Shown here: one piece after another, positions 3,387 through 56,019 of the stretch
Numbering within the stretch: position 1 is the first letter of the stretch
Layout of the letters: each line of letters opens with the position of its first letter
Source: a virus
Strand: one strand, 5' to 3'
Length of the DNA stretch: 64,000 nt
Virus record (IMG/VR): IMGVR_UViG_3300033407_000002
Coordinates: 1 to 64,000 of that record
Notes under the pieces: generated by a model
Seen by the model: only the letters and a program-made list of their open reading frames with translations
Database searches by the model: none
Told to the model about the DNA's origin: nothing
Position numbers and translations under genes: made by a program

Positions 3387-3417
3387 TACCGACTGGATTA
3401 CCGCCGGAATGTGTCGC
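3387..3417 (-). promoter_or_regulatory. promoter-like motif GCGACA-N18-GTC (copy 1)
   Basis: Minus strand: GCGACA CATTCCGGCGG TAATCCA GTCGGTA. It ends 68 nt upstream of ATG 3319. Confidence 0.6.
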
Positions 3418-6380: not shown

Positions 6381-6411
6381 TAACGACCGAATTACTCGGA
6401 CAATGTGTCGC
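6381..6411 (-). promoter_or_regulatory. promoter-like motif GCGACA-N18-GTC (copy 2)
   Basis: Minus strand: GCGACA CATTGTCCGAG TAATTCG GTCGTTA; 50 nt upstream of ATG 6331. Confidence 0.6.
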
Positions 6412-7554: not shown

Positions 7555-7585
7555 TACCGACCGAATTCCACGAGAAGTGTGTCGC
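7555..7585 (-). promoter_or_regulatory. promoter-like motif GCGACA-N18-GTC (copy 3)
   Basis: Minus strand: GCGACA CACTTCTCGTG GAATTCG GTCGGTA; 47 nt upstream of ATG 7508. Confidence 0.6.
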
Positions 7586-8242: not shown

Positions 8243-8273
8243 ATCCGACCCGATTTCCCGCATGTTGTGTCGG
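8243..8273 (-). promoter_or_regulatory. promoter-like motif (C)CGACA-N18-GTC (copy 4)
   Basis: Minus strand: CCGACA CAACATGCGGG AAATCGG GTCGGAT; 41 nt upstream of ATG 8202. Confidence 0.5.
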
Positions 8274-8299: not shown

Positions 8300-8869
8300 T
8301 TAGAACAGGCTCGGCTGGCTGGCTTCCGCCCGTGCATTGACCAATCCCTTAGTGACCAGCGAGCGAGCTGCGCCAAGCGTCACGCCAAGCTGCTCGGCGA
8401 TCTGCTGATACTCGGCTCCTTCGATGTATCGCAGACGAACCGCCGCCTGTTGCAGTTGCGGCAGCCGGTCCAGTATCCCGAGCACATGACCACACTCTTC
8501 GCGGACAACCATCGATTCGCGTACCTCGCGGTCGTCCGCCGCCGGCTGGTATCCGTCGCGGCTCTGCTCGGTCGCTACTCCGATGGCAACCTGCTCGGAT
8601 CGCAGTGATCGCTTGCCGGCTCCTAGGTGCGTTGTAACGGCTGTCTCGCATGCGCACTTGGCGATCGTCAGTACCCAGTGGCGGAGCTGATCGAGCGACT
8701 CGGCTCGGCAGGCTGCGGCTCCGGTAACCGCTTTGAGGCATACGGTCTGGTACAGGTCGTCGAGGTCGAACCGCTGATTCATGCGGCTTAGACGGCGGCT
8801 GTAGCGGGCGCGGATGGTTGATTCCAGGTCGGCTAGCGTTTCGCAGACGAGGTCCGGGGTGACTTGCAT
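8300..8869 (-). CDS. ECF-type (group 4) sigma-70 family RNA polymerase sigma factor, paralog 1
   Basis: Region 2 (RFDLDDLYQTVCLKAV...LRHWVLTIAKCA) and region 4 HTH (LDRLPQLQQAAVRLRYIEGAEYQQIAEQLGVTLGAARSLVTKGL). Track ORF 8300..9106 trimmed to ATG 8869-8867, just downstream of a leader element. Confidence 0.8.
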   Translation of the reverse strand: MQVTPDLVCETLADLESTIRARYSRRLSRMNQRFDLDDLYQTVCLKAVTGAAACRAESLDQLRHWVLTIAKCACETAVTTHLGAGKRSLRSEQVAIGVATEQSRDGYQPAADDREVRESMVVREECGHVLGILDRLPQLQQAAVRLRYIEGAEYQQIAEQLGVTLGAARSLVTKGLVNARAEASQPSLF

Positions 8870-8882
8870 TTGAGTAGCTCCA

Positions 8883-8916
8883 GGCTTGAGGTTTTCGTTT
8901 CCGTGGTAAGTCGGAA
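8883..8916 (-). promoter_or_regulatory. conserved 5'-leader element: hairpin UUCCG[ACUUACCA]CGGAA + AAAACCUCAAGCC
   Basis: Minus strand: TTCCGACTTACCACGGAAACGAAAACCTCAAGCCTGGAG, directly before ATG 8869. A TATATA -10-like box lies at 8930-8935. Confidence 0.55.
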
Positions 8917-9005
8917 ATGATTTGTGGTCTATATAGAAAGGCTTGTTTTCAGGCGGTTCAGGGCGCGAAAAGCGGTTATTTTCTGAAAGGTTTTCGGCTC
9001 TGGAC

Positions 9006-9044
9006 GCTTGAGGTTTTTCGTCGCTCCGATTGGTAAGGTCGGAG
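9006..9044 (-). promoter_or_regulatory. conserved 5'-leader element: hairpin CUCCGA[CCUUACCAA]UCGGAG + AAAAACCUCAAGC
   Basis: Minus strand: CTCCGACCTTACCAATCGGAGCGACGAAAAACCTCAAGC. This is a second, tandem copy upstream of the sigma gene. Confidence 0.55.
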
Positions 9045-9063
9045 GTGTCTTTCGTATACCTAC

Positions 9064-9092
9064 ATTCTAGCAGATTGCCGCGCGGCGAACAG
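9064..9092 (-). promoter_or_regulatory. sigma70-like promoter with extended -10 (TGcTAGAAT)
   Basis: Minus strand: CTGTTC-N17-(TGC)TAGAAT, about 20 nt upstream of leader element 9006..9044. Candidate host-RNAP early promoter for the phage sigma gene. Confidence 0.4.
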
Positions 9093-9134
9093 AGGTTTGA
9101 GCCCATAAAACGCTCGGATTTCGCGATTATTTGC

Positions 9135-12294: not shown

Positions 12295-12533
12295 GCGTAT
12301 TGTCCCTTCAGGAATTAAGCGGCACTAATAAAAAATGAGCGGAGGATTCAAAGCGACTGGACACGTGCTTAAAGCTTAAATACTTGTCGTCGCGGTGCTG
12401 CTCTTATCCGCTCGGCCTACAGTCCCGGCCATTTCAATCACGACCGATCAAAGCCAGCCTTCCACTGGACCCGAGCATCCGACAATGCCTTGCGGTCGTA
12501 TAAACCCGACCACCTTCGGTGTTTTACCTATAC

Positions 12534-12857
12534 TCAGCCAGGACAGTTTCTCAATGCAACGATGGCCTTTTCAAGCAGCGCTATGCACTCGCCGACTTCA
12601 CCGCGAATCGTGCAATAGTTCATCCTCACCGGCATGTTTTCACCGCCTCCAATTGAAATGCGGAGTATGCCCTGTTCGTCGTTTGGCATAAGGCGGCAAT
12701 GGATGTCGTTCGACTTCCAATCGGCCAATGACTTTTCTCCTGCCGCGCCAGTCGTGATCGTCGACGCGGCCGCCTTCTGTGCTGCGTCCGCCCGCTCGCG
12801 AAGTCGCTTGAGGAATTCGCCTCGGAGGCTGTGCGATTCATCGTCATGCGTTTGCAT
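12534..12857 (-). CDS. hypothetical protein
   Basis: 107-aa track ORF; ATG 12857 lies 22 nt after the U-run of the ncRNA locus. Confidence 0.55.
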   Translation of the reverse strand: MQTHDDESHSLRGEFLKRLRERADAAQKAAASTITTGAAGEKSLADWKSNDIHCRLMPNDEQGILRISIGGGENMPVRMNYCTIRGEVGECIALLEKAIVALRNCPG

Positions 12858-12878
12858 AAGTCATTCCCTAATGAAATG

Positions 12879-13021
12879 AAAAAACAAAAAGATCGGCGGG
12901 GATTACCCTCTCGGCATACTGGCTTACCTGCAATCCATCCCTTCACCCGTTAGCCTCCCGGGAAGCCAACGCGCCTCGTTCGATCGCGCCTCCTCGAAGG
13001 AACTGCACGCGCCACCGATCC
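12879..13021 (-). ncRNA. candidate structured RNA, module C (closing helix + short hairpin + U-run)
   Basis: The 5' GGAUCGGUGG (13021-13012) can pair with CCGCCGAUC (12899-12891). That segment is preceded by hairpin GGG-UAAU-CCC and followed by UUUUUGUUUUUU. It starts with the same 12-mer GGATCGGTGGCG as module A. Confidence 0.35.
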
Positions 13022-13244
13022 AAGCGAGCGCTGCGGATTCGAACCGCTTCCCCAACCTGCTGGCCACGGCCTTAGGCACGCTGGGTTTAACCTGTGGTCT
13101 CCGTGGAAACCCGCTCGTAAGTGCTCTGCCGTCTCTCCGGCTGAGCAGTACGTCAAGCCTTGATTCGGTGGCTTCTCCCTACCCCAATTACTAGACATTT
13201 GAGAGCCGTCTTGAATTGGTAAGTCATCCAGCTCTACGCTTACT
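13022..13244 (-). ncRNA. candidate structured RNA, module B (canonical tRNA T-arm sequence, CUUACCA-loop hairpin)
   Basis: Minus strand carries GCGG-TTCGAAT-CCGC (13047-13033, an exact GGTTCGAATCC T-loop 11-mer). It also carries hairpin AGAGC...TGA[CTTACCAAT]TCA...GCTCT (13235-13202) and a 10-bp hairpin TGCTCAGCCG-GAGAGA-CGGCAGAGCA. No coding potential is convincing. Confidence 0.35.
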
Positions 13245-13430
13245 AAAAGGATCGGGCAGGATTCGCACCTGCACTCAGGGACTCTTCTCAATGCCATAGT
13301 TCGGCCACCTTCGCGCGATGGCGAGTCAGGTTAGCGCCGTTCAGCTTGAGGTTGGTACTTCTGATCGCCTTCGACCGACTTCAATTAGGTCCGCATCTAC
13401 AGGCTAGCGTCTACATGCCGCCACCGATCC
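13245..13430 (-). ncRNA. candidate tRNA-like RNA, module A (acceptor-like helix + T-arm + U-run, ~182 nt)
   Basis: The 5' GGAUCGG (13430-13424) is perfectly complementary to CCGAUCC (13255-13249). That segment directly follows T-arm GCAGG-UGCGAAU-CCUGC (13272-13256) and is followed by UUUU. The 5' end lies about 8 nt downstream of promoter motif 13443..13473. Confidence 0.45.
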
Positions 13431-13442
13431 GGTCTCCAACCA

Positions 13443-13473
13443 CATAGACCGATTTACCCAGCAAGTATGTCGC
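13443..13473 (-). promoter_or_regulatory. promoter-like motif GCGACA-N18-GTC (copy 5), drives the ncRNA locus
   Basis: Minus strand: GCGACA TACTTGCTGGG TAAATCG GTCTATG. Confidence 0.55.
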
Positions 13474-14015
13474 TACCCGCCGCGAATTTTATTCCACCGC
13501 CGTATCCGGCGCTCCTCCTTCGACTCCCGGCACTGCTTGGCGAATTCCATGTCGGCCAACCTATCGTCGGCAAGCACCTCATCCCTACGCTTCCTCTCCT
13601 CCGGCCCCTCGTAGACAACGCCATCGCTCTCATACAGTCCGGCCGGCGAACTACCGGCCACCTGTCCAATACCCACGTACGGCGCTACCTCCCGAATCTT
13701 CGCCAGCGAAAGCAGCCCCACATTGCGGCACGATAGCAGCTCCGAATCCGGCACATTCCTAACCGATCCAATCGTCACATAGCCGCGTGACTCCAGACCG
13801 TTGGCCATCCGGGTCGGCAGCACACTTGCCAGCGGCGTACAGTCCTCCATATTCCACTCGCGCGATGACGCCAGATCCTCGGATCGCTTCCGCCGCGCGT
13901 AACGAATGAACTCCCGGCAGGCTTGCACGTACTTCCGCTGCTGCATTAGCACCCGGACTTCACCCATTACCCTGGAGAAGTCCTCCATCCATGCATAGCC
14001 TACTTCTTTGTGCAT
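13473..14015 (-). CDS. RNA polymerase alpha-subunit C-terminal-domain-like (HhH) protein
   Basis: LPTRMANGLESRGYVTIGSVRNVPDSELLSCRNVGLLSLAKIREV aligns by eye with the alpha-CTD pattern L-V-R-S-A-N-C-L...I-G-D-L...E-L-L...N-L-G-K-K-S-L-x-E-I. Track ORF trimmed to ATG 14015 (MHKEVGYAW), 8 nt after the upstream stop. Confidence 0.6.
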   Translation of the reverse strand: MHKEVGYAWMEDFSRVMGEVRVLMQQRKYVQACREFIRYARRKRSEDLASSREWNMEDCTPLASVLPTRMANGLESRGYVTIGSVRNVPDSELLSCRNVGLLSLAKIREVAPYVGIGQVAGSSPAGLYESDGVVYEGPEERKRRDEVLADDRLADMEFAKQCRESKEERRIRRWNKIRGG

Positions 14016-14023
14016 CTGCGCGA

Positions 14024-14344
14024 TTACTCCTGCTCGTCGTACAGGCGGCGCCAGTCCCGTAGCGTGAACCGCTGCCACATGTGACGCTCATAGGACACTC
14101 GACCGAAGGCCGCTATGCCACGCAAAAGTGACCCTCGATTTCCAGTCTCTATCTCGTCCAGCAACCCCAGTCGGTCCCGGCATGTCCGACTGTTGCAGAC
14201 TAACGCCCAGGCCATCAACCCGAAAAACAACAGCCAGCCGAAACCAGTAAGCACCACTACAGCCATGCGATCACCTCTATCCCGATTAAGAGTAGCCGAG
14301 CACTTCAGCCGTTCAATGCTAGGACCGTAGAGTCGGCCAGACAT
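14024..14344 (-). CDS. hypothetical membrane protein (1 TM)
   Basis: Track ORF 14024..14470 trimmed to ATG 14344 (MSGRLYGPS...). TM segment AVVVLTGFGWLLFFGLMAWALV. The start is uncertain. Confidence 0.4.
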   Translation of the reverse strand: MSGRLYGPSIERLKCSATLNRDRGDRMAVVVLTGFGWLLFFGLMAWALVCNSRTCRDRLGLLDEIETGNRGSLLRGIAAFGRVSYERHMWQRFTLRDWRRLYDEQE

Positions 14345-14375: not shown

Positions 14376-14855
14376 TTACCCGTTGTCCTTGCCGGCCGAT
14401 TCTTCCTCGCGCTTCTTTTTGTTCTCTTCGATCTTCTTTGGATCGGGTTTGTACTTGCCGGTCGATTCAATGCCGGTACCCTCGAGCATCGATTGCTTAG
14501 CGTCGGCCTCGGACATGCCGTGCTCCTGTAGAAACGCGACTAGCTTTTCGGCTTCGTCGATTTCGTCTTCTCCCCAGACAACCTCTGGCTCGCCACCTTC
14601 CGGTTCCTCGGCCTCTTCGGCGGTTTCTTCGATGGGTTTCGTTTCCGTAGCCTCGGTCTCAACTGACTCGGTCTCAACGTCCTCGGGCTTACCCTCCTCC
14701 GCGACTTCGGTTTCATCAGCCATCACGTCCTGCGCCGGGCTTTGTTCGTCACCTTCAACTACCAGATCACCAGCAGACCAAAGCATCTTGTTGCTCTGGC
14801 TTTTTACCGGTGGTGTATCGTCGGCTTCATTTACTTCATCTGCTTTTTCCGTCAT
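14376..14855 (-). CDS. highly acidic protein (scaffold-like or decoy-like; function unknown)
   Basis: 159 aa with long Glu/Asp/Thr-rich tracts; 4-nt overlap with the portal stop. Confidence 0.55.
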   Translation of the reverse strand: MTEKADEVNEADDTPPVKSQSNKMLWSAGDLVVEGDEQSPAQDVMADETEVAEEGKPEDVETESVETEATETKPIEETAEEAEEPEGGEPEVVWGEDEIDEAEKLVAFLQEHGMSEADAKQSMLEGTGIESTGKYKPDPKKIEENKKKREEESAGKDNG

Positions 14856-17800
14856 AGCAATAGCTCCGCTTGTACGACCCAGTATGAACCAACCTGTTTC
14901 CCGTCCGACATTATCGGCTTGCGGTCCACGCCTGTAACCTTGTATTTACTGTTCCGGTTCAAAACGACCTCATGCTGGTGCAATGATTCGTGGCCGAGCG
15001 CTACGTCTGGAGACAGCGCCTTAGTCCCTTTCGGCAGACTGATCTCGAACCTCCCTGTCTGGCCAGAGTCCACATTGTTGGCAAATCCATCGGCCACATT
15101 CTGCATCGTAGACGTCGAACCAAACCCTTTATCCGTGAGCGTCTTACCAATAAAGGACTCAGGATCACTGCCGAGCATGTTTTCAAAATCCCCGCCGCCG
15201 CGATAAACCGTCATCGGCTCGGCCAATTCCGGCGCTCTCTGAAATGCCCCGTCCAGATCCTTGATCTTTTGCTTGTTGTCCGAATCCATTTTCTGCTTGC
15301 CGCGCAGACCGTCGTTCATGTCGGAAAAACTACCGCCGGTATAGACCGCGATCGCGTCAATATCCTTTTCCGATGCTCCCTTGGCCCACTCTCCGAACTG
15401 CTTGTTGTGCAGTTCCGCCGAATCCTTGCCGGTCATCGACGAGGTGCCGATCTGGCTTTCCCACTTATGGCCACTGGCCAGCACAAACTCATTTGCCGTG
15501 CGGTCTACCTTAGGTTTTCCGGTTCCGCCTGACTTTAGATCGTCCGCCTGCGCCCGCATCCTCTTGGCATCACCACTCCATTTCGCCGCCAGTTCCGGGT
15601 TTAACTCGGCAAACTTCTTGGACTTGTCCTCGAGACGATCCGCTTCGGCGGTCAGTCCAGCGATCTCCTTCTTGACCTTGGGCGACAGTTCTTTCGGTGC
15701 CTCCTTTTTCGGTTCACCTGGAGCCTCCTCTTTCGGAGCCTCCTTTGGTTTCTCCTTTGTCTCGTCCTTCTTGCCGGCGGCCGGAGTCTCATCGCCACCA
15801 CCCGCTAATTTCGGAAACAGTTTTTTCGCTGAGGCTATGGACCCCGCAGCGGCTGCCACATTGCCCGACGATACCCATCTGCCGTTTGCGTCTCGCGGCT
15901 GATTCGGGTTGTACGCCTTGGCAAGACTGCCGCCGATGGCATCCACAATCGCCTTGACCAACCCGGCATCGACTCCCTTGCTTGCCCCCGCGTCGTGCTG
16001 CCGGAACTCGCTCTGAAGATGACCGACCACCGCCGACAATTCGCGGATGCTCTGACCGACATCATGCGAGACCGCCGCCTTCTGCAACTCCCTCAGTTCG
16101 GCGGACAGCGATTCGACTTGGCTCTTGATCGCAACGGTCTGCGGATCCTCAAAATCCACCCTCTCGGAAAATGCGGACTTGGCCAGCGCAATCCCCGGAG
16201 CACTGACCGGCTCACGTACCGGCCTGGTCGCGCCGCGCAACGGTACCCGGACCCTCTGCCCCCCAACGACCACGACCGCATAGGACAAGCTCGCCGCCGA
16301 ATTCAGTAGTTCATTACGTGGATCCGGTACAGACCCATGCTTCTGAATGTACCCAAGCGTCACATGCGGCTGATAATCCGGGTACGTTTCCACGACCGGT
16401 AGTGCCGCCAAGAGCCGGTCATGCGCTCCGTGGATCGCGGTACCCAGCACTTCGACCTTCAGTACGTTTTCGTCGTCGTTCTCGAACAGGCCACTTGGTC
16501 CGAATGTCACGTCAATCTGATCCAGCCGACGAACCTGGTCCACCACTTCTTTCAGCGGCGTTCCGACGATTCCATACAAGAGCGTTACGTGCGGCCATTC
16601 TTCCAGACCGTCTCCGACCATCGAGTCGGGATCGATCTTGGCTTGTTCGGCTTTGACCAGCTCCAAGACCGACGGCGGCAATTCGAGCATCACTGCTCCC
16701 GGCTTCTCCTCGGCCGGAGTGCCTCGCAATAAGCGGTCGCGTACTTCCCCCTCGGGCAATAGCGCCGCGATCTCCTCAATGCCCGCACCACCCGCTACCG
16801 CCCGATCGTCCCAGTAAACGTCCGCGAACACCTTGCCGCTTGGCATGTCGTTTAGCGCTACGTCCGGATTCTCGTTGATGCCGTCGTACGGTATCCCATG
16901 CGAATCGAGCCAACCTCGCAATAGTTCGTTGTCCTCCCGACAGGTGAAGATCACGATCCGGCAGCCGGCGCGCTTCAGGCGATGGAGCTTATCGACCGCC
17001 GACGATATCGGTTCACCTATTGTCTCGACATGAAACGAGCCGTCGTACTCGGCCAGCGTCCCGTCGAGGTCAACCGCAACGACTGGTCCGGGGCGCTCTG
17101 ACCTTCCGGGAATCGCCTTGGATAGCGACTTGCCGAACGACCGCGCAAACGGCGACGTGAGCCCGGCGGCACTACCATTGCCATTCGCCGCTCCTCCCAC
17201 TCCACCGTCTAGCGGAGGCTGACCCTGCTTCTTTGGCGGCTGCGGTTCGTCGACAACCAGACCAGTCGATGTGACTCGAGCATCGTCCCGCCAATCTCCA
17301 AACGGCTGTAATCCACGGATCGCCCGCCACTCACGCATGGTCCTAACACCGGCGGTCAAGTCGGTCGTTAACTGCTGCTCGATCAGCGTTGGATCGTCTA
17401 GCGGCTGCGTCTCGAACTCGACGCTGACTGTTGCCCCTTCGTCCTGCGCGAGCATCGTCCATTCGCCGCCAAGTAGGTCCAGGTCCCCTTGCACGACCGT
17501 TAGCGTTTGCATCAACGACGCGGCCAAACTGCCATAAGTCATATTGTCCGATAGACCGGCCGCCGATTCACCGACACCATGTCCGGCCAGTATGGACCGC
17601 TGCAACTGATCGAATGCCTGGACGTACTCCATGTCCACCGGCGCGGTATCGCGGCTCAACGTCGCACCGCCTCCCATCGCTATGGCCGATTGGTCGGTAT
17701 CCTCGTCCTGCAACTTTCGGTTGAGCCGCTTTTCCGCCGCGTCCAGCTCCGGCTCGCTGATCGTCTTATCTTCGAACGACACGAACCCCAGCGGCCGGGG

Positions 17801-18544
17801 TCCTCGCTTGAGCTGTTTCCACCTGGTCATGTCGACCATCAGAGCCGAGTCAATCCACCAGCCAACCGCATCGGTCGGACTCTTGCCGTCGCCCCTAAGG
17901 TAAGGGTGCGGCAGGCGGATCACGCTCAGGGATTCGACCGGCAGTATCGCGCCGGAGAGCATGCGAATGAGCGGATTGACGATGAAACCTAATCCGGCCT
18001 GGTAGTGCAGTAGCCGGATTCCGCCGTTGGGACAGTTCTCATACTGGCCGGGGTAGACCGGCTGAGTCAGCGCCATGGGAATGATATACCGCGCCGCTGT
18101 CCGGCTGCCGTCTTGCGTCGGTCGGTTCCAGATCAGGCAGCATCCGTGCAGGTGCAATTGCTGGATATATTCCCAGCGGAACATGGCTCCTGACTCGGTC
18201 CGGTTTGGCTGGTCGACCATGCGCGCGACCCAGTTATCTTCCGGCACGGTATCGGCTGAGCCGTCTTGCGCCATGGACTTCCAGATCGAGCCCCATTTCT
18301 TTCTGGCGGCCTTGCGCTTGGCGGTTTTGGCCGGTTCGGCGGAGTATACGTAGCCGTGGGCACGCGCGGCTTGTCGGCCAAGGACCGCGATCGCTACGTA
18401 GTTCCAGCCCTGGTAGCTTTTACTTTCCTTATTGTGGTCCGAGCCCCATTGGCCGATATTATGGTGGCCGAGTACGTCGGCTATTGCCTCGTGATAGGCG
18501 GGATCGGACTGGACCTGAAGGCCGGCCGGTAACTTGAATGCCAT
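14852..18544 (-). CDS. portal protein fused to HAD phosphatase, 2H phosphoesterase and ADP-ribosyltransferase domains
   Basis: A single 1230-aa ORF directly downstream of the terminase genes. Residues 1-435 are portal-like. Residues 485-585 are HAD (VAVDLDGTLA, VIFTCRE, KVFADVYWDD). Residues 615-770 are 2H, with two HxT motifs (PHVTLLY, PHVTLGY). A Lys/Glu-rich linker and an NPNQPRDANGRW motif follow. Residues 1015-1230 are an R-S-E ADP-ribosyltransferase (VYRGG, GFGSTS, QHEVVL). Confidence 0.85.
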   Translation of the reverse strand: MAFKLPAGLQVQSDPAYHEAIADVLGHHNIGQWGSDHNKESKSYQGWNYVAIAVLGRQAARAHGYVYSAEPAKTAKRKAARKKWGSIWKSMAQDGSADTVPEDNWVARMVDQPNRTESGAMFRWEYIQQLHLHGCCLIWNRPTQDGSRTAARYIIPMALTQPVYPGQYENCPNGGIRLLHYQAGLGFIVNPLIRMLSGAILPVESLSVIRLPHPYLRGDGKSPTDAVGWWIDSALMVDMTRWKQLKRGPRPLGFVSFEDKTISEPELDAAEKRLNRKLQDEDTDQSAIAMGGGATLSRDTAPVDMEYVQAFDQLQRSILAGHGVGESAAGLSDNMTYGSLAASLMQTLTVVQGDLDLLGGEWTMLAQDEGATVSVEFETQPLDDPTLIEQQLTTDLTAGVRTMREWRAIRGLQPFGDWRDDARVTSTGLVVDEPQPPKKQGQPPLDGGVGGAANGNGSAAGLTSPFARSFGKSLSKAIPGRSERPGPVVAVDLDGTLAEYDGSFHVETIGEPISSAVDKLHRLKRAGCRIVIFTCREDNELLRGWLDSHGIPYDGINENPDVALNDMPSGKVFADVYWDDRAVAGGAGIEEIAALLPEGEVRDRLLRGTPAEEKPGAVMLELPPSVLELVKAEQAKIDPDSMVGDGLEEWPHVTLLYGIVGTPLKEVVDQVRRLDQIDVTFGPSGLFENDDENVLKVEVLGTAIHGAHDRLLAALPVVETYPDYQPHVTLGYIQKHGSVPDPRNELLNSAASLSYAVVVVGGQRVRVPLRGATRPVREPVSAPGIALAKSAFSERVDFEDPQTVAIKSQVESLSAELRELQKAAVSHDVGQSIRELSAVVGHLQSEFRQHDAGASKGVDAGLVKAIVDAIGGSLAKAYNPNQPRDANGRWVSSGNVAAAAGSIASAKKLFPKLAGGGDETPAAGKKDETKEKPKEAPKEEAPGEPKKEAPKELSPKVKKEIAGLTAEADRLEDKSKKFAELNPELAAKWSGDAKRMRAQADDLKSGGTGKPKVDRTANEFVLASGHKWESQIGTSSMTGKDSAELHNKQFGEWAKGASEKDIDAIAVYTGGSFSDMNDGLRGKQKMDSDNKQKIKDLDGAFQRAPELAEPMTVYRGGGDFENMLGSDPESFIGKTLTDKGFGSTSTMQNVADGFANNVDSGQTGRFEISLPKGTKALSPDVALGHESLHQHEVVLNRNSKYKVTGVDRKPIMSDGKQVGSYWVVQAELLL

Positions 18545-18999: not shown

Positions 19000-19030
19000 T
19001 ACCGACTGGATTGCGGCCAGAATGTGTCGC
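19000..19030 (-). promoter_or_regulatory. promoter-like motif GCGACA-N18-GTC (copy 6)
   Basis: Minus strand: GCGACA CATTCTGGCCG CAATCCA GTCGGTA, just after the terminase stop. Confidence 0.6.
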
Positions 19031-19035
19031 GGATT

Positions 19036-20745
19036 CTATCTAGCGTTGAAATGTTTATGCGCTCTCTGGCAGCATTCCTGGGAGTGGTCGACTTTCATAC
19101 TCGGATCTTGGAACTGCGATGTTACCTCGCAGACCGAACAACAGTAGTCGCTACCCGGCGCTACGGGATGCTCGCAACCGGGAGCTGTGCAGATCGTCTG
19201 GACTTTCGCGCTTAGACCGGCCATTATCGCTGCCCTTGGCTTCTTCTTCCCGAGAGTCCCCTCTAGCATCAAGTGAGCGCCGGCTGCGGCGTCTACCTGA
19301 TCCTTGAATTTTCCGTTCGGGAAGAACTGCATTTGCTGCTTGAACACCGGAGTCCATTTGTCGTTCACAATGAACACTCGCCCTAGCCTCACATCCCTAG
19401 CCAGTGGCTTTGCTCGAGCATCCTTGTTGCCTACCGGTCGGACCGATTCGAAATTAACACCGCGCATATGCTTCTCGGTCGATCTCGCCGAGAGCTTGCC
19501 GCCGGAACCTCCCTCCTCCTCCATGCCGAACCGATAGCGGTCGAAACCGTATCGCGCTATGTCAACATCCTTGGCGAGTACAAGCTGAGTCTCCACGTCA
19601 TCCACATCCCACTGTCCGGCAATCACGTTCAGGATGTAGTAGTCGACGTGCTCCTCACCGAACTTATCCCTCCGAGTCTTCTTCCCAACCAAAACAAGAG
19701 CGGTTTCGCAACCCGCACCCTCGGTCGCCGCCTTGTCGACGAACCGCACCACTGCGTCCAGTTCAGGGACATCCTTAGCCTCTATGTCAATCAAGCACTC
19801 TGGCTTGAATATCCTCCCGGCGATTGCCTTGGGGTCCTGTTGCAATTGTGCCGGCGCATCATCCCCAAGCTCCCTCTCCATGTCGTCTACGATTTCGCCG
19901 GTCAGCCGCAAAGGATCCAGTAGCTGCCCGGTTTCCGTCCGCCAGTCTCCACCGTAGCCGTAATCCTTCATTGCCAAACTAGGGTCGAATCGCATCGGAA
20001 AGCGAATGATCGTCCAAGGCTCATCCCTACCCTCGAGCTGTGCCGACTCGTTCGCCTCGTACGCAATGGAACTCGGGTCATCCGGTGCCAATCGCTGTTG
20101 AGAAATGATATGCACAACTCCCTTTGTTCGCCCTCGCGTAGAGAGTTGACGGCGGTAGAACGTCTTCATGTCGTTCTTAACCTTCTCGTCGTAGGCATCT
20201 CGCGCGTTGAGCGGGTCCTCCCAAAGCACGAATCGCGGGTGCTCTCCGGTGACTCGCCCGCGCCGGGTCGTAGCCAGCCGCCATCCACCGGACTTATTCC
20301 GGTAGTTGCTCTTAGCCTTCGTGTCGTCCCGGAACTCCAGGTTATGCCACAGCGTACGAAACCATGGAGACTCCATTAGTGACTTTGCGTCCGATGCGTC
20401 GCGCGATGCCAAGTCTCGGTCGTAGCTAATACTGAGCACCCCGACTCGCGGATCCAGTGACCATATCCACGCTGGAAACACGACCGATATCAGGGACGAC
20501 TTTAGGGTCTCAGGCGGCAGATTGATGCAAAGCCGCGAGATCTTCCGGTAGTAAGCGGCCTCGAGATAGTTGCAAACGACCGGGATATACCCGGACATAA
20601 TGAGATCGCCGTCCACCCTCGGGACCGCTGGCCACGCATACTGAAGGAAATTGACCAGTCGGCGGCATGATCCACGGACGGTCGACCTAAGTTGCGGGTT
20701 CTGAGCTAACTGATCCGCCGTCGGCCTGAACGAGACCAGCTCCAT
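19036..20745 (-). CDS. terL: terminase large subunit
   Basis: 569 aa immediately upstream of the portal. Variant P-loop INLPPETLKS, nuclease-half motifs (VDKAATEGAG...ALVLVGK, EEEGGSGGK, DQVDAAAGA) and a C-terminal Cys cluster. Confidence 0.8.
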   Translation of the reverse strand: MELVSFRPTADQLAQNPQLRSTVRGSCRRLVNFLQYAWPAVPRVDGDLIMSGYIPVVCNYLEAAYYRKISRLCINLPPETLKSSLISVVFPAWIWSLDPRVGVLSISYDRDLASRDASDAKSLMESPWFRTLWHNLEFRDDTKAKSNYRNKSGGWRLATTRRGRVTGEHPRFVLWEDPLNARDAYDEKVKNDMKTFYRRQLSTRGRTKGVVHIISQQRLAPDDPSSIAYEANESAQLEGRDEPWTIIRFPMRFDPSLAMKDYGYGGDWRTETGQLLDPLRLTGEIVDDMERELGDDAPAQLQQDPKAIAGRIFKPECLIDIEAKDVPELDAVVRFVDKAATEGAGCETALVLVGKKTRRDKFGEEHVDYYILNVIAGQWDVDDVETQLVLAKDVDIARYGFDRYRFGMEEEGGSGGKLSARSTEKHMRGVNFESVRPVGNKDARAKPLARDVRLGRVFIVNDKWTPVFKQQMQFFPNGKFKDQVDAAAGAHLMLEGTLGKKKPRAAIMAGLSAKVQTICTAPGCEHPVAPGSDYCCSVCEVTSQFQDPSMKVDHSQECCQRAHKHFNAR

Positions 20746-40537: not shown

Positions 40538-40568
40538 CTACGACCGATTTTCTGCGAGCTTATGTCAC
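40538..40568 (-). promoter_or_regulatory. promoter-like motif GtGACA-N18-GTC (copy 9)
   Basis: Minus strand: GTGACA TAAGCTCGCAG AAAATCG GTCGTAG; 18 nt upstream of ATG 40520, with GGAG in between. Confidence 0.5.
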
Positions 40569-47220: not shown

Positions 47221-47787
47221 TCACTCTTCAAACCCCGGCAGCGAATACTGCCCCAGTTCCGCCCTCGCTTGTCGGACCGCTTGGCATACGCTGGTCCTCG
47301 CGGCCGCTATTGTCACCCCGAGTTCTTCCGCGATCTGTTGATACGACCGCTGCTCGAGGAACCGCATTCTCAGCACGGCCTGACGCTGGGGCGGCAATCG
47401 GTCCAGACATGCCAGCATGTGCCGGCACGCTTCACCATGGACCAGCTCACTGGACTGTTCGCACCACGGCTCCACGTACGGCAGGTCACCGGAAGTGGCT
47501 ACGATGGCTCGCTCCCGCATGGTCGACCGCTTGCCGCTGAGCCGATGGGTCGCGATCGCCGAACGGAACACGTTGGCGGCGATTTTCAGAATCCAGTTCC
47601 GGCACTCGGCTGCGGACTGAGCCTGGCATCGCTCGTGATTCCGGTAAGCTCGCCAGCAGACCGACTGATAGAGGTCGTCCACATCGAACCGATGGCTCAC
47701 TCCCGAGAGCGCGCCGCGGTAGCGTTGTTCGATGATGGGCTGTACTTCCGACAAGACTTCGACAAGATCGTCCGATCCAACAGACAT
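47221..47787 (-). CDS. ECF-type sigma-70 family sigma factor, paralog 2
   Basis: RFDVDDLYQSVCWRAY...CRNWILKIAANVF (region 2) and LDRLPPQRQAVLRMRFLEQRSYQQIAEELGVTIAAARTSV (region 4). Confidence 0.8.
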   Translation of the reverse strand: MSVGSDDLVEVLSEVQPIIEQRYRGALSGVSHRFDVDDLYQSVCWRAYRNHERCQAQSAAECRNWILKIAANVFRSAIATHRLSGKRSTMRERAIVATSGDLPYVEPWCEQSSELVHGEACRHMLACLDRLPPQRQAVLRMRFLEQRSYQQIAEELGVTIAAARTSVCQAVRQARAELGQYSLPGFEE

Positions 47788-47860: not shown

Positions 47861-48397
47861 CTACCTGGACAGTTCACGCACGTTATCAAGTCCTCTGGTT
47901 ACCAGAGTCCGAGCAGCGCTGACGGTTATTCCCATGCGATCGGCGATTGCCGGGTATCCCAGTTCCTCGAGATATCGCATGCGGATAGCGGCCGCTTGAC
48001 GCTGGGGAATTTGGTCGAGACTCCGCTGTACGATTTGGAACTGACCGGCGGTTTCCTCGGCTGCCTCGATCGCCTGTAGTGGCTGCGGCTCTGGAGCAAC
48101 CGCCTCATCGCCGGCATTGCTCTGGACCAGTACCGGTCGCTTCTGGGTCCCTAGTTCCTTCTGCAGTTCCGAGAGCATCGTGTGTTTGGCGATGACCAAT
48201 ACCCAGTTCCGTAGGTCTTCCATGGACTTGGCGCGGCACGTATCGGCGGCTCGGGTGGCTTTCATCGCGGTAACCTGTACCAGGTCATCCGCGTCAAACC
48301 GCGACTGGATCGGCGATAGACGGTTTCTGGCTCGCCGGCGGACTTCCGGGGCTGTCTGCTCCAGCGCGGCATGAATATCGAGGGGCTCGGATGACAC
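47861..48397 (-). CDS. ECF-type sigma-70 family sigma factor, paralog 3
   Basis: RFDADDLVQVTAMKAT...LRNWVLVIAKHTM (region 2) and LDQIPQRQAAAIRMRYLEELGYPAIADRMGITVSAARTLV (region 4). Confidence 0.8.
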   Translation of the reverse strand: MSSEPLDIHAALEQTAPEVRRRARNRLSPIQSRFDADDLVQVTAMKATRAADTCRAKSMEDLRNWVLVIAKHTMLSELQKELGTQKRPVLVQSNAGDEAVAPEPQPLQAIEAAEETAGQFQIVQRSLDQIPQRQAAAIRMRYLEELGYPAIADRMGITVSAARTLVTRGLDNVRELSR

Positions 48398-50146: not shown

Positions 50147-50372
50147 AACGGCGGCCGTCCATGGCCGTCCTAGCGTCGTCAGTGAATCAGGTTGGTCCCG
50201 CCCCAACTAACGTCCCCTGTTGCATCCTCGCCTTGAAACTTCGGCGGTCGCCCGTCTTATATCCGTAGGCTCAATTGGATGCCGGCCCGGCATTCTGGAC
50301 GCCCTGTTGGGAACCTAAGTCCCTCTCAGCCGGGAGGTGCGCGTCATCTGGCCGCGCTGCTGATCTACCATT

Positions 50373-51271: not shown

Positions 51272-52291
51272 ATGCGCAAGCCGTTCTACCGCAAGAGCCG
51301 CAATAAGTGGTTCGTCGTCAACGCCCACGGCAAGTTTCTCCCCCTGCATGAAGATGAGACCGAAGCCTATCGACTCTGGAATCAGATGCTCGAGCTATCG
51401 CGGCAACCCGGAGACCCGCGACTAACCGTCCTGTCGCTCTGTAGCCTCTTCCTGAGCGAACATGAGGTCTTACTTAAACCCGACCGCTACAAGCACCTGG
51501 AGCACTACGTGACGACGTTTGGCGTCGATAAAGGACATCTACTCTGCCGGGACATCACCAAGGCTACAATCGTCTCCTGGGTAGACTCCCATGCGGCATG
51601 GGGCGACTGGTCCCGGCGCGATGCCATCGCGTCCGCAAAGTATGTCTTCCGCTGGGGACTGAGCCACAAGTACATAGCGGACAACCACATAGCCGAACTG
51701 CCCAACCCACGACCGGAATCACGCGAGCGCGTTCTAACCGATGAGGAACACGCTCTGCTGATAACCGCCGCTCGGAAGCAGAAGGAGAACGGCAAGGAAT
51801 TTACGCTAGTCCTCATTGCCAGCCGCTGCGGAGCGCGACCCAAGCAGATCCGCGAAGTGACCGCCGGCAACGTCTTTGGCAATACGTGGGTCTTCAAGAA
51901 GCACAAGACACGCGGCAAGACAGGCAAACCGCTCGTAGTCTACCTACCGCCCTGCCTGGCCGTTCTGACGGCTATGCTGGTCCGCATGCACCCGACCGGT
52001 CCCTTATTCCGCCAAGCGTCCGGAAGGCCCTGGAGCAAGGACACCATCGCACGGCGGCTACTGAGGCTTCGCCGCTCGATCAATTTAGACGATCAGGTAA
52101 TCATGTACGCTTACCGGCATACTTACGCGACCAATGCCATGATGGCCGGATTATCCACGGCGGAGGTCGCAACGCTCTTGGGACATTCCGACACAAGAAT
52201 GGTCAGCGAAGTCTACGGGCACCTGGACCAGAACAACCAGCACATGCTCGGCGTGGCGGCTAGGAGTTACCGGCGCGCCGCAGAGCCTTGA
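51272..52291 (+). CDS. int: tyrosine recombinase / phage integrase
   Basis: 339 aa. C-terminal catalytic region AYRHTYATNAMMAGLSTAEVATLLGHSDTRMVSEVYGHL (H-x-x-R, LGH, catalytic Tyr). Confidence 0.9.
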   Translation: MRKPFYRKSRNKWFVVNAHGKFLPLHEDETEAYRLWNQMLELSRQPGDPRLTVLSLCSLFLSEHEVLLKPDRYKHLEHYVTTFGVDKGHLLCRDITKATIVSWVDSHAAWGDWSRRDAIASAKYVFRWGLSHKYIADNHIAELPNPRPESRERVLTDEEHALLITAARKQKENGKEFTLVLIASRCGARPKQIREVTAGNVFGNTWVFKKHKTRGKTGKPLVVYLPPCLAVLTAMLVRMHPTGPLFRQASGRPWSKDTIARRLLRLRRSINLDDQVIMYAYRHTYATNAMMAGLSTAEVATLLGHSDTRMVSEVYGHLDQNNQHMLGVAARSYRRAAEP

Positions 52292-55479: not shown

Positions 55480-55510
55480 TACCGACTAGATTACCAGCAA
55501 TTTGTGTCGT
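55480..55510 (-). promoter_or_regulatory. promoter-like motif aCGACA-N18-GTC (copy 13)
   Basis: Minus strand: ACGACA CAAATTGCTGG TAATCTA GTCGGTA. Confidence 0.55.
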
Positions 55511-55988: not shown

Positions 55989-56019
55989 TCTAGACCGGAT
56001 TATTCGGACGGTATGTCGC
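55989..56019 (-). promoter_or_regulatory. promoter-like motif GCGACA-N18-GTC (copy 14)
   Basis: Minus strand: GCGACA TACCGTCCGAA TAATCCG GTCTAGA; 19 nt upstream of ATG 55970, with GGAGGA in between. Confidence 0.55.

Follow-up and report, generated by a model that had tools for sequence, protein, structure and literature searches.

A candidate phage operon of non-decoding tRNA-like RNAs with constant tRNA-like ends and variable inserts

Introduction

A tRNA-like fold is known to serve as a processing or stability handle in engineered tRNA scaffolds, in the tRNA-microRNA-encoded RNAs (TMERs) of murine gammaherpesvirus 68 (MHV68) and in mascRNA. TMERs and mascRNA are eukaryotic and the scaffolds are synthetic, and the cargo of TMERs and mascRNA lies outside the tRNA-like fold without replacing the anticodon arm. 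RNase P and the enzymes of 3' tRNA processing recognise their substrates by a 7-bp acceptor stem stacked on a T arm. In bacteria, Y RNAs with a tRNA-like domain are encoded right after Ro60, and the YrlA RNA of Mycobacterium smegmatis is cut by RNase P and has CCA added (PMC4201824). In staphylococci, the non-proteogenic tRNA-Gly has TGC or TGT in place of TTC in the T loop and shows poor binding to EF-Tu and the ribosome (PMC7826273). A structured-RNA survey of IMG/VR in 2023 has also listed unnamed tRNA-like candidates (PMC10690425), which could include the RNA family described here. In our study, a 64,000-nt stretch of phage DNA (positions 1 to 64,000 of the IMG/VR record IMGVR_UViG_3300033407_000002, hereafter the window) was analysed at a locus lying on the minus strand at 13471-12879, which is non-coding and carries tandem tRNA-like units.

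Results

Module A and the type-1 RNA family

The initial annotation had divided the locus into three tRNA-like or terminator-like modules, A, B and C. All the sequence features listed by it were found, either exactly in place or displaced by at most 4 nt, including the GGAUCGG/CCGAUCC pairing of module A, its adjoining T arm and the UUUU that follows. The tRNA-like character of the units also stood, but the partition did not, as A and C appear to form one family and 'B' comprises a spacer with a hairpin plus a separate 93-nt unit. The features of module A are given below.

13249..13430, minus strand: module A, a 182-nt type-1 tRNA-like scaffold RNA, matched by the model R1
13430-13424 and 13255-13249, minus strand: acceptor stem of module A, GGAUCGG/CCGAUCC, perfectly paired
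13421-13407, minus strand: D-like arm of module A, GCG-GCAUGUAGA-CGC
13272-13256, minus strand: T arm of module A, GCAGG-UGCGAAU-CCUGC, abutting CCGAUCC
13245..13248, minus strand: UUUU trailer immediately following CCGAUCC of module A

Module A belongs to a family, called type-1 here, of which about 55 distinct members were collected from IMG/VR and metagenome contigs, representing dozens of environmental phages. The consensus begins with GGAUCGG-CG-GCGUG-GACAGYGA-CACGC, continues with a variable insert of 20-130 nt and ends in GCAGG-UGCRAWU-CCUGC-CCGAUCC, after which UUU or AUU follows. The 24-mer formed by the T arm and the 3' acceptor strand is identical to that of module A in 9 IMG/VR contigs, and with three degenerate positions it was found in 54 metagenome contigs. 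In nearly every case the complementary GGRUCGG was located 65-190 nt upstream of the 24-mer, followed by CG and a hairpin, usually GCGUG-GACAGYGA-CACGC. The units are 65-190 nt long with a trailer of the form [U/A][U/c]U (UUU, AUU or ACU), and CCA is never encoded. Module A, with an insert of about 130 nt, is the second-longest member seen. A scan anchored at the 5' end gave extra members with altered T arms; it matched mostly a DNA-polymerase coding motif, and the true members were sorted by eye.

A covariance model, R1, was built from 36 members with the window sequence excluded. Its architecture consists of a 7-bp acceptor stem, a 5-bp D-like arm, a variable insert and a 5-bp T arm with the 7-nt loop U-G-N-R-A-W-U. 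R1 matched 77 units in 54 loci at E < 0.1, and 56 units from 41 sources at E < 0.01. On module A it scored 43.2 bits, with E 2e-7 window-wide and E 2e-9 within the locus. Alone, a generic minihelix search (acceptor plus T arm) is not significant, with one match in the window against 2.4 in shuffles, and the single-sequence folding energies were unremarkable (z of 0.0 for A, -0.4 for C and -2.3 for B). The significance beyond chance comes from homology, through the identical 24-mer in the 9 contigs and the R1 match.

The covariation check in related phages, which the initial annotation had proposed, supported the stems in an alignment of 54 distinct sequences fitted to the model. Compensatory changes were observed in all five pairs of the D-like stem, in three of the five pairs of the T stem and in one of the seven acceptor pairs (pair 6-67). 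Paired cells amounted to 97.3%, in comparison to 23-46% with slid partners, and the observed values were reached in none of 500 shuffles. The D-like stem, which lies outside the patterns used for selection, gives the cleanest covariation evidence. In locus L020, adjacent units have GGAUCAG/CUGAUCC alternating with GGAUCGG/CCGAUCC, which indicates that each unit closes its acceptor stem with its own two ends and not with its neighbours. Pairing in trans between neighbouring units, in a YrlA-like order, was ruled out by the same locus.

Between one and five units stand in tandem at a locus, two to five of them in many loci (L008, L020, L067), and sometimes they lie among genuine tRNA genes (tRNA-Met and tRNA-Cys in L027, L067 and L006). 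The inserts of paralogues are unrelated to one another and show no splice-site-like conservation. Orthologous groups of inserts are shared across phages, and their hairpins are maintained through compensatory changes. A subfamily of 93-94 nt (L047 46-138, L059 181-273, L049 600-693) has a pseudoknot between a 13-nt hairpin loop and the nucleotides immediately preceding the T arm, and this pairing covaries (GCUAG/CUAGC versus GCUUG/CAAGC). Rfam 15 recognised the family neither in the window nor in the related loci scanned, and the full-text literature searches turned up no description of it. It was absent from 50,697 deposited phage genomes, where a 124-nt member gave chance matches only. Clustering of the open reading frames (ORFs) around 71 loci revealed no conserved gene for a protein partner; the protein clusters near them are general early, replication and recombination genes only (DnaN, RecT, a YqaJ-like nuclease and an SSB-like protein).

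The units are neither canonical tRNAs nor tmRNAs

ARAGORN, run on the whole window with introns, transfer-messenger RNA (tmRNA) and permuted tmRNA allowed, reported 0 genes, and Rfam gave nothing there at gathering thresholds. A permissive Rfam scan of 12700-13600 at E 10 returned chance-level matches only, with no tmRNA and no YrlA among them. An anticodon loop or arm is absent in modules A and C and in all 44 members examined. The T loop U-G-N-R-A has G at the psi55 position (UGCGAAU in module A), and the D-like loops, GCAUGUAGA or GACAGYGA, have no G18G19. As judged from these sequences, the units would be unable to act as translation adaptors. The initial annotation had seen no canonical cloverleaf and no tmRNA hallmarks and had suggested a tRNA mimic, with which the searches agree. 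Its other suggestion, a permuted or intron-containing tRNA, was not supported, as no member has an anticodon loop and the inserts of 20-130 nt are mutually unrelated. A tmRNA was likewise rejected: the window copy has A3-U70 and not G3:U70, a tag frame is missing, and neither ARAGORN nor Rfam detected a tmRNA.

The GAGAGA hairpin, unit B2 and module C

Downstream of module A, the following elements were located.

13146..13244, minus strand: spacer B1, 99 nt, without a family match and with UUGACGUACUG just before the hairpin
13124..13145, minus strand: conserved GAGAGA-loop hairpin CUCAGCCGGAGAGACGGCAGAG
13025..13117, minus strand: unit B2, a 93-nt cloverleaf-like tRNA mimic in its minimum free energy (MFE) fold, with a 6-bp acceptor CGAGCG/CGCUCG, a D-like hairpin GGUUUC-CACG-GAGACC and one long arm
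13047-13033, minus strand: T arm of B2, GCGG-UUCGAAU-CCGC, with the canonical loop UUCGAAU
12890..13021, minus strand: module C, a probable diverged type-1 unit of 132 nt, with the same 12-nt 5' end as module A

The GAGAGA hairpin and the module B T arm had both been noticed before and are confirmed at these positions. A 16-17-mer of the hairpin, CAGCCGGAGAGACGGC(A), is identical in 10 other, related phage loci, and in 6 of them 1-6 nt separate the hairpin from the type-1 unit that follows. In L008 a variant, GCCAGAGCACUGGC, keeps the stem with a different loop. The hairpin thus appears to be a second conserved element of the arrays; a processing signal, a protein site or the 3' end of a spacer are candidates for its role. 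The spacers of L020 and L028 also contain ACGUACU motifs. An element of some 140 nt (GGCAUC..GGUGCCCGUUGUCAGAGGAUCGCUGGACGCAGCGAUU..ACGUACU..) is conserved among the spacers of L020 (9230-9372), L028 (130-275) and L034 (1400-1543); it ends in the GAGAGA hairpin and may be another RNA of the arrays. In L020, AAUUUUGU and a protein gene follow the hairpin.

The MFE fold of B2 is a four-way junction which accounts for 61% of the ensemble (z = -2.0). It has a 4-nt D-like loop and no anticodon loop, and its sole Rfam match, to tRNA-Sec, is at chance level (14.7 bits, E 8.9). B2 lies 3 nt upstream of module C, which parallels the position of 'type-2' tRNA-like genes before type-1 units in L020, L040, L027 and L014. 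MAFFT gave no sensible alignment of B2 with the type-2 sequences and no model was built; B2 may be placed in type-2 from its position and a short resemblance in the D region only. Exact-pattern scans of IMG/VR for the 3' ends of B2 and C found nothing.

Type-2 genes adjoin type-1 units in L020 (8598-8674), L028 (629-704), L040 (863-935), L046 (551-623) and L052 (965-1041). Several of them are called 'tRNA-???' by ARAGORN, with two- or four-base anticodons (6- or 8-nt loops), and they have the common D arm GGUGU(U)AAUCCAGGAAACAC.

In module C, the 12-mer GGAUCGGUGGCG found at 13430-13419 in module A occurs again at 13021-13010. As proposed earlier, it pairs with CCGCCGAUC (12899-12891) near a small hairpin, and a U-run follows; the closing stem GAUCGGUGG/CCGCCGAUC has slipped by one base, and of the T arm only the small hairpin GGG-UAAU-CCC is left. 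R1 gave 15.6 bits on module C, with E 0.17 window-wide and 0.0018 when the locus only was searched, and its assignment as a diverged copy of the module A family is marginal. A third scaffold-like element was observed at 50184-50366 (minus strand, 183 nt; R1 13.4 bits, E 0.5), with the layout AGAUCAG-CA-GCGCG-GCCAGAUGA-CGCGC, insert, GUUGG-GGCGGGA-CCAAC-CUGAUUC. The gap around it is rich in stop codons, with the integrase gene about 0.9 kb away, and this weak element could be a decayed copy or related to an attachment site.

Promoter motif and transcript end

The elements that may start and end the transcript are as follows.

13446..13471, minus strand: promoter-like motif GACATACTTGCTGGGTAAATCGGTCT, 15 nt upstream of G1 of module A
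3390-3415, 6384-6409, 7558-7583, 8246-8271, 13446-13471, 19003-19028, 40541-40566, 55483-55508 and 55992-56017, minus strand: all copies of the motif in the window
12879..12890, minus strand: U5GU6 run closing the RNA operon; the start codon of the next gene (12857) follows 22 nt later

The motif in front of module A had been read as a phage promoter by the initial annotation, and it was found to be recurrent. The form CGACAYA-N11-12-RWAATYNRGTCK occurs in 9 copies in the window, all of them on the minus strand and all before genes or transcription units. It is most simply taken as a phage-specific promoter, since three sigma factors are encoded by the phage. The related locus L072 has a TATAAT box whose end lies 6 nt upstream of G1; this spacing puts the 5' end of the transcript at the acceptor stem. 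The terminator scan called no intrinsic terminator site in 12400-14100; the U5GU6 run would escape such a scan because the stem preceding it is long-range. This run may end transcription after module C. The earlier 'terminator-like' reading is hence plausible solely for the U5GU6 run and doubtful for module A, where only UUUU follows a long-range stem.

A match beside a bacterial Ro60 gene

Among 185,579 bacterial and archaeal species genomes, the 24-mer signature has a single match, in a Polyangiaceae metagenome-assembled genome (L010). It falls between genes, immediately downstream of a Ro60/Rsr gene whose product has TROVE and vWA_Ro60 domains. Chance matches to a 24-mer are expected at about 0.1 in 596 Gb by a rough estimate, which is not negligible; that such a match should fall beside Ro60 by chance is very unlikely. 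The L010 copy is without the 5' acceptor strand. In the Ro60 reading frame of L010, an in-frame TAG was observed at 1531-1536 with the same frame continuing to 1761; an assembly error, read-through and a pseudogene are possible explanations.

In six orthologous loci of Myxococcota (L088-L093), Ro60 was found to be set within dense tRNA arrays, which carry sub-threshold YrlA matches and an HNH gene. The hosts of these loci and of L010 are Polyangiaceae, Labilithrix and relatives (for instance L089 1-5605 and L090 1-5590). Five of the seven Ro60 loci had 6-16 ARAGORN tRNA calls over 4-5.6 kb, while L093 and L010 had 1-2. The loop U-G-C-R-A is present in 18 of the 71 T arms of these loci, which shows that the phage T loop has bacterial counterparts in Ro60 neighbourhoods; its carriers include tRNA-Gly(GCC) and, immediately after Ro60, a tRNA-like gene that is conserved. 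In the literature searched, no description of this arrangement of Ro60 within a tRNA array was found. Viral contigs gave nothing for Ro60 with two peptide patterns specific to Myxococcota, a search too insensitive to count. The L010 match supports, without proving, a link to Y RNAs. Of the YrlA-like idea in the initial annotation, this neighbourhood of Ro60 speaks in favour, whereas the silence of the Rfam YrlA model and the different order of elements do not.

Genomic setting and coding status

The window is part of a contig of 100 kb (ena:ERZ27256991:k141_4721222) from a phage that is uncultured and probably temperate and has nearly all of its genes on the minus strand. Besides the genes listed below, the phage encodes RecT, a YqaJ-like nuclease and DnaB.

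13473-14015, minus strand: gene immediately upstream of the RNA operon, with a 180-aa product
14852-18544, minus strand: portal protein fused to HAD-like, 2H-phosphoesterase and ADP-ribosyltransferase domains
19036-20745: large terminase subunit
8300-9106, 47221-47787 and 47861-48397: three sigma-factor genes
51272-52291, plus strand: integrase gene

The 13473-14015 product matches the C-terminal domain of the RNA polymerase alpha subunit (E 2e-5) and is a singleton among 5.8 billion proteins. The terminase has its closest match among GenBank phages at 31% identity. Searches by blastn with the locus and with the 12 kb around it gave no DNA-level relatives among deposited phages, and no relatives of the flanking proteins were found in IMG/VR. 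Syntenic relatives, through which covariation in B1, B2, module C and the insert of module A could be assessed, are thus absent.

The portal fusion is 1230 aa long and contains portal, HAD/polynucleotide-kinase-phosphatase-like, 2H phosphoesterase and C-terminal ADP-ribosyltransferase parts, the 2H domain with a weak resemblance to Acb1; it is probably a virion-delivered effector. P-loop kinase, HAD-type phosphatase-like and 2H phosphoesterase domains are all present in the phage. The HAD and 2H parts, being fused to the portal and the ADP-ribosyltransferase, resemble an injected effector rather than a set of genes for RNA repair.

The earlier view that the locus holds no convincing ORF was upheld. 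The ORFs 12953-13297, 12927-13079 and 12629-12946 have no Pfam or PHROG match at E 1. The 115-aa ORF (12953-13297) has a codon-usage score of -0.095, which is outside the in-frame range and near the out-of-frame range of the genes of this phage (in-frame 0.24 +/- 0.09 with a minimum of 0.04, out-of-frame -0.27 +/- 0.09).

Discussion

The locus is best interpreted, with a probability of about 0.6, as a small phage operon of stable, non-decoding tRNA-like RNAs. Transcription would run from the motif at 13471-13446 through module A, the spacer with its hairpin, B2 and module C to the U-rich run at 12890-12879. The ends of a type-1 unit form a tRNA-like handle supported by covariation, in which the 7-bp acceptor stem is stacked on the 5-bp T arm and a D-like arm is added. 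The insert, which differs completely among paralogues and is conserved and structured within orthologues, takes the place of the anticodon and variable arms. Through the handle, the units may be excised by host RNase P at the 5' end and by RNase Z or exonucleases at the N-U-U trailer, and the handle would then shield the excised units from decay, leaving stable small RNAs outside translation. Excision, stability and the absence from translation are proposed on account of the acceptor/T-arm processing substrate, the precedent of YrlA (PMC4201824) and that of the UGC/UGU T loop (PMC7826273). Further, the handle may be a constant dock for one conserved partner, with the insert providing the activity specific to each unit. 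That the handle is nearly the same in phages otherwise unrelated speaks for a partner which reads its sequence, as processing alone would tolerate far more variation. Rsr/Ro60, an acceptor-end enzyme or toxin, and a phage protein encoded beyond the sampled flanks are the candidates.

Several observations weigh against this proposal. Recognition by RNase P and RNase Z needs no extreme conservation of the handle, and processing alone is an insufficient explanation of it. The clustered ORFs of the 71 loci gave no conserved partner gene, and the family is not carried by any cultured phage. Within the locus, module C is only a marginal match to R1, B2 is without a statistically supported homologue, and A and C are thermodynamically no more stable than shuffled sequences. 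Moreover, the members were fished by acceptor/T-arm or 5'-end patterns, so the conservation in those parts is partly by construction, and the covariation alignment was fitted to R1.

It is possible, though unlikely, that the units are phage Y RNAs, whose handle would be a circularly permuted YrlA tRNA-like domain and whose insert stem would be bound by host Ro60/Rsr; the phage would then redirect Rsr-PNPase RNA decay or the Rsr/RtcB RNA-repair response. The sole species-genome match of the 24-mer adjoins Ro60, as bacterial Y RNA genes do, and in Myxococcota Ro60 is flanked by tRNA-like genes with sub-threshold YrlA matches, a quarter of the T arms there being U-G-C-R-A. The link to Ro60, however, comes from one locus, in which the 5' acceptor strand is missing, and tblastn detected no Ro60 in the window or the family loci, nor was any found among the genes of 10 kb more of the contig. 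On the 5' strand of the long insert stem of module A, GGUCGAAGG (13376-13368, containing GUCGAAGG) matches the proposed Rsr-binding motif GNCGAAN0-1G, but GNCGAA occurs in 7 of 44 members against 3.1 expected (P ~0.03), which is a weak enrichment. The accession of the contig containing the window (ERZ27256991) also falls in the European Nucleotide Archive (ENA) numbering range of two of these Myxococcota contigs, which counts for the Y-RNA reading. Rfam YrlA (RF02553) was silent at E 10, the YrlA order (T, acceptor-like stem-loop, D) differs from that of the phage unit, and YrlA has a TruB-modified U55 where the phage units have G. Somewhat more doubtful still is a role as anti-defence decoys, which would soak up or block anticodon nucleases or acceptor-end toxins of the CapRel or MenT type, much as has been proposed for phage tRNA arrays facing tRNA-targeting defence. 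The acceptor/T-arm minihelix, which is read by acceptor-end enzymes, is the most conserved part, the arrays adjoin genuine or aberrant tRNA genes, and tRNA array units are discussed as putative anti-defence systems (PMC12803027). Anticodon nucleases would nevertheless find no anticodon-loop mimic here, and a pure sponge needs no distinct, individually conserved and structured inserts. No association with defence or toxin genes was seen, and the kinase, phosphatase and phosphoesterase domains that could suggest tRNA repair lose weight because HAD and 2H lie within the portal-ADP-ribosyltransferase fusion and not in a repair operon.

Signals acting in cis or at the DNA level, such as copies of attP or an integration site, remnants of mobile elements with inverted ends, or terminators, are a highly improbable explanation of the conserved ends. 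GGATCGG...CCGATCC are inverted repeats, U runs follow the units, and the phage has an integrase with the weak third copy 0.9 kb from its gene; the locus itself, however, is 38 kb from that gene. The units are full length, strand-specific and tandem, and the compensatory changes in the D-like and T stems are explained only by selection on a single-stranded fold. The insert diversity is too great for a miniature transposon, and no terminator-type hairpin precedes the U runs. An attP fragment was ruled out by the full-length units with internal covariation. Least credible of all would be decoding tRNAs with huge introns or expansions, or a permuted tRNA or tmRNA missed by standard tools. The 7/5 acceptor/T-arm geometry, the G3:U70 alanine identity pair of a few family members and the canonical GGUUCGAAUCC T arm in B2 are in line with such a reading. 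Against them stand the empty ARAGORN result in the window, the failure of the Rfam tRNA and tmRNA models to rise above chance, the absence of a 7-nt anticodon loop in all of 44 members, inserts without splice-site-like conservation, and the combination of G55, no G18G19 and A3-U70 in the window copy.

An extension of the operon proposal, speculative and rather improbable, is that the constant handle is tied evolutionarily to Ro60-associated tRNA-like genes and presents varied structured RNA domains, several to a genome and arranged in arrays, to one host machine. If true, the units would be programmable adaptors redirecting that machine, for instance Ro60/Rsr-PNPase or the tRNA-processing and repair apparatus, towards various targets in the course of infection. 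The family would add a new natural tRNA-mimic architecture, in which a hypervariable domain replaces the anticodon arm on a constant tRNA-like handle. It would also offer a clonable set of RNAs for probing the tRNA-like part of bacterial Y RNAs and the use of tRNA-processing, RNA-repair and RNA-decay machinery by phages, and the design of a tRNA scaffold plus cargo may be of practical interest for the expression of stable structured RNAs in bacteria.

Comparison with known systems

YrlA (Chen et al. 2014, PMC4201824) resembles the type-1 units in being non-decoding, in joining a tRNA-like domain to a non-tRNA module and in occurring also in phages. The type-1 unit ends in an acceptor stem, whereas YrlA ends in the Ro-binding stem; it has G55 in place of U/psi55 and a D loop without the conserved bases of tRNA type, and its second module is hypervariable while that of YrlA is a conserved Ro-binding stem. 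With Rfam silent, the order different and no Ro60 nearby, the units are not standard YrlA. The staphylococcal non-proteogenic tRNA-Gly shares the UGC/UGU T loop, an aberrant D loop and a job outside translation (PMC7826273). It is otherwise a normal 75-nt tRNA that has an anticodon, receives glycine from GlyRS and serves the Fem transferases, whereas the phage units show no sign of charging. In tmRNA, as in type-1 RNA, the 5' and 3' ends of a longer RNA come together as acceptor stem and T arm, with its middle part standing in for the anticodon arm, and a few type-1 members have G3:U70; on the other hand, type-1 units are without a tag frame or pseudoknot series, are 65-190 nt long, and have A3-U70 in the window copy. 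Phage tRNA clusters are likewise tandem, close-set and made of tRNA-shaped genes (PMC4758250, PMC5966550, PMC6409571). In contrast to these, type-1 units have no anticodon loop and are invisible to tRNA finders, and their acceptor, T and D-like sequences are near-invariant, where those of the clusters are isoacceptor-specific. In this comparison, the type-1 RNA appears to be a previously unannotated family of tRNA mimics, of a kind which is already known.

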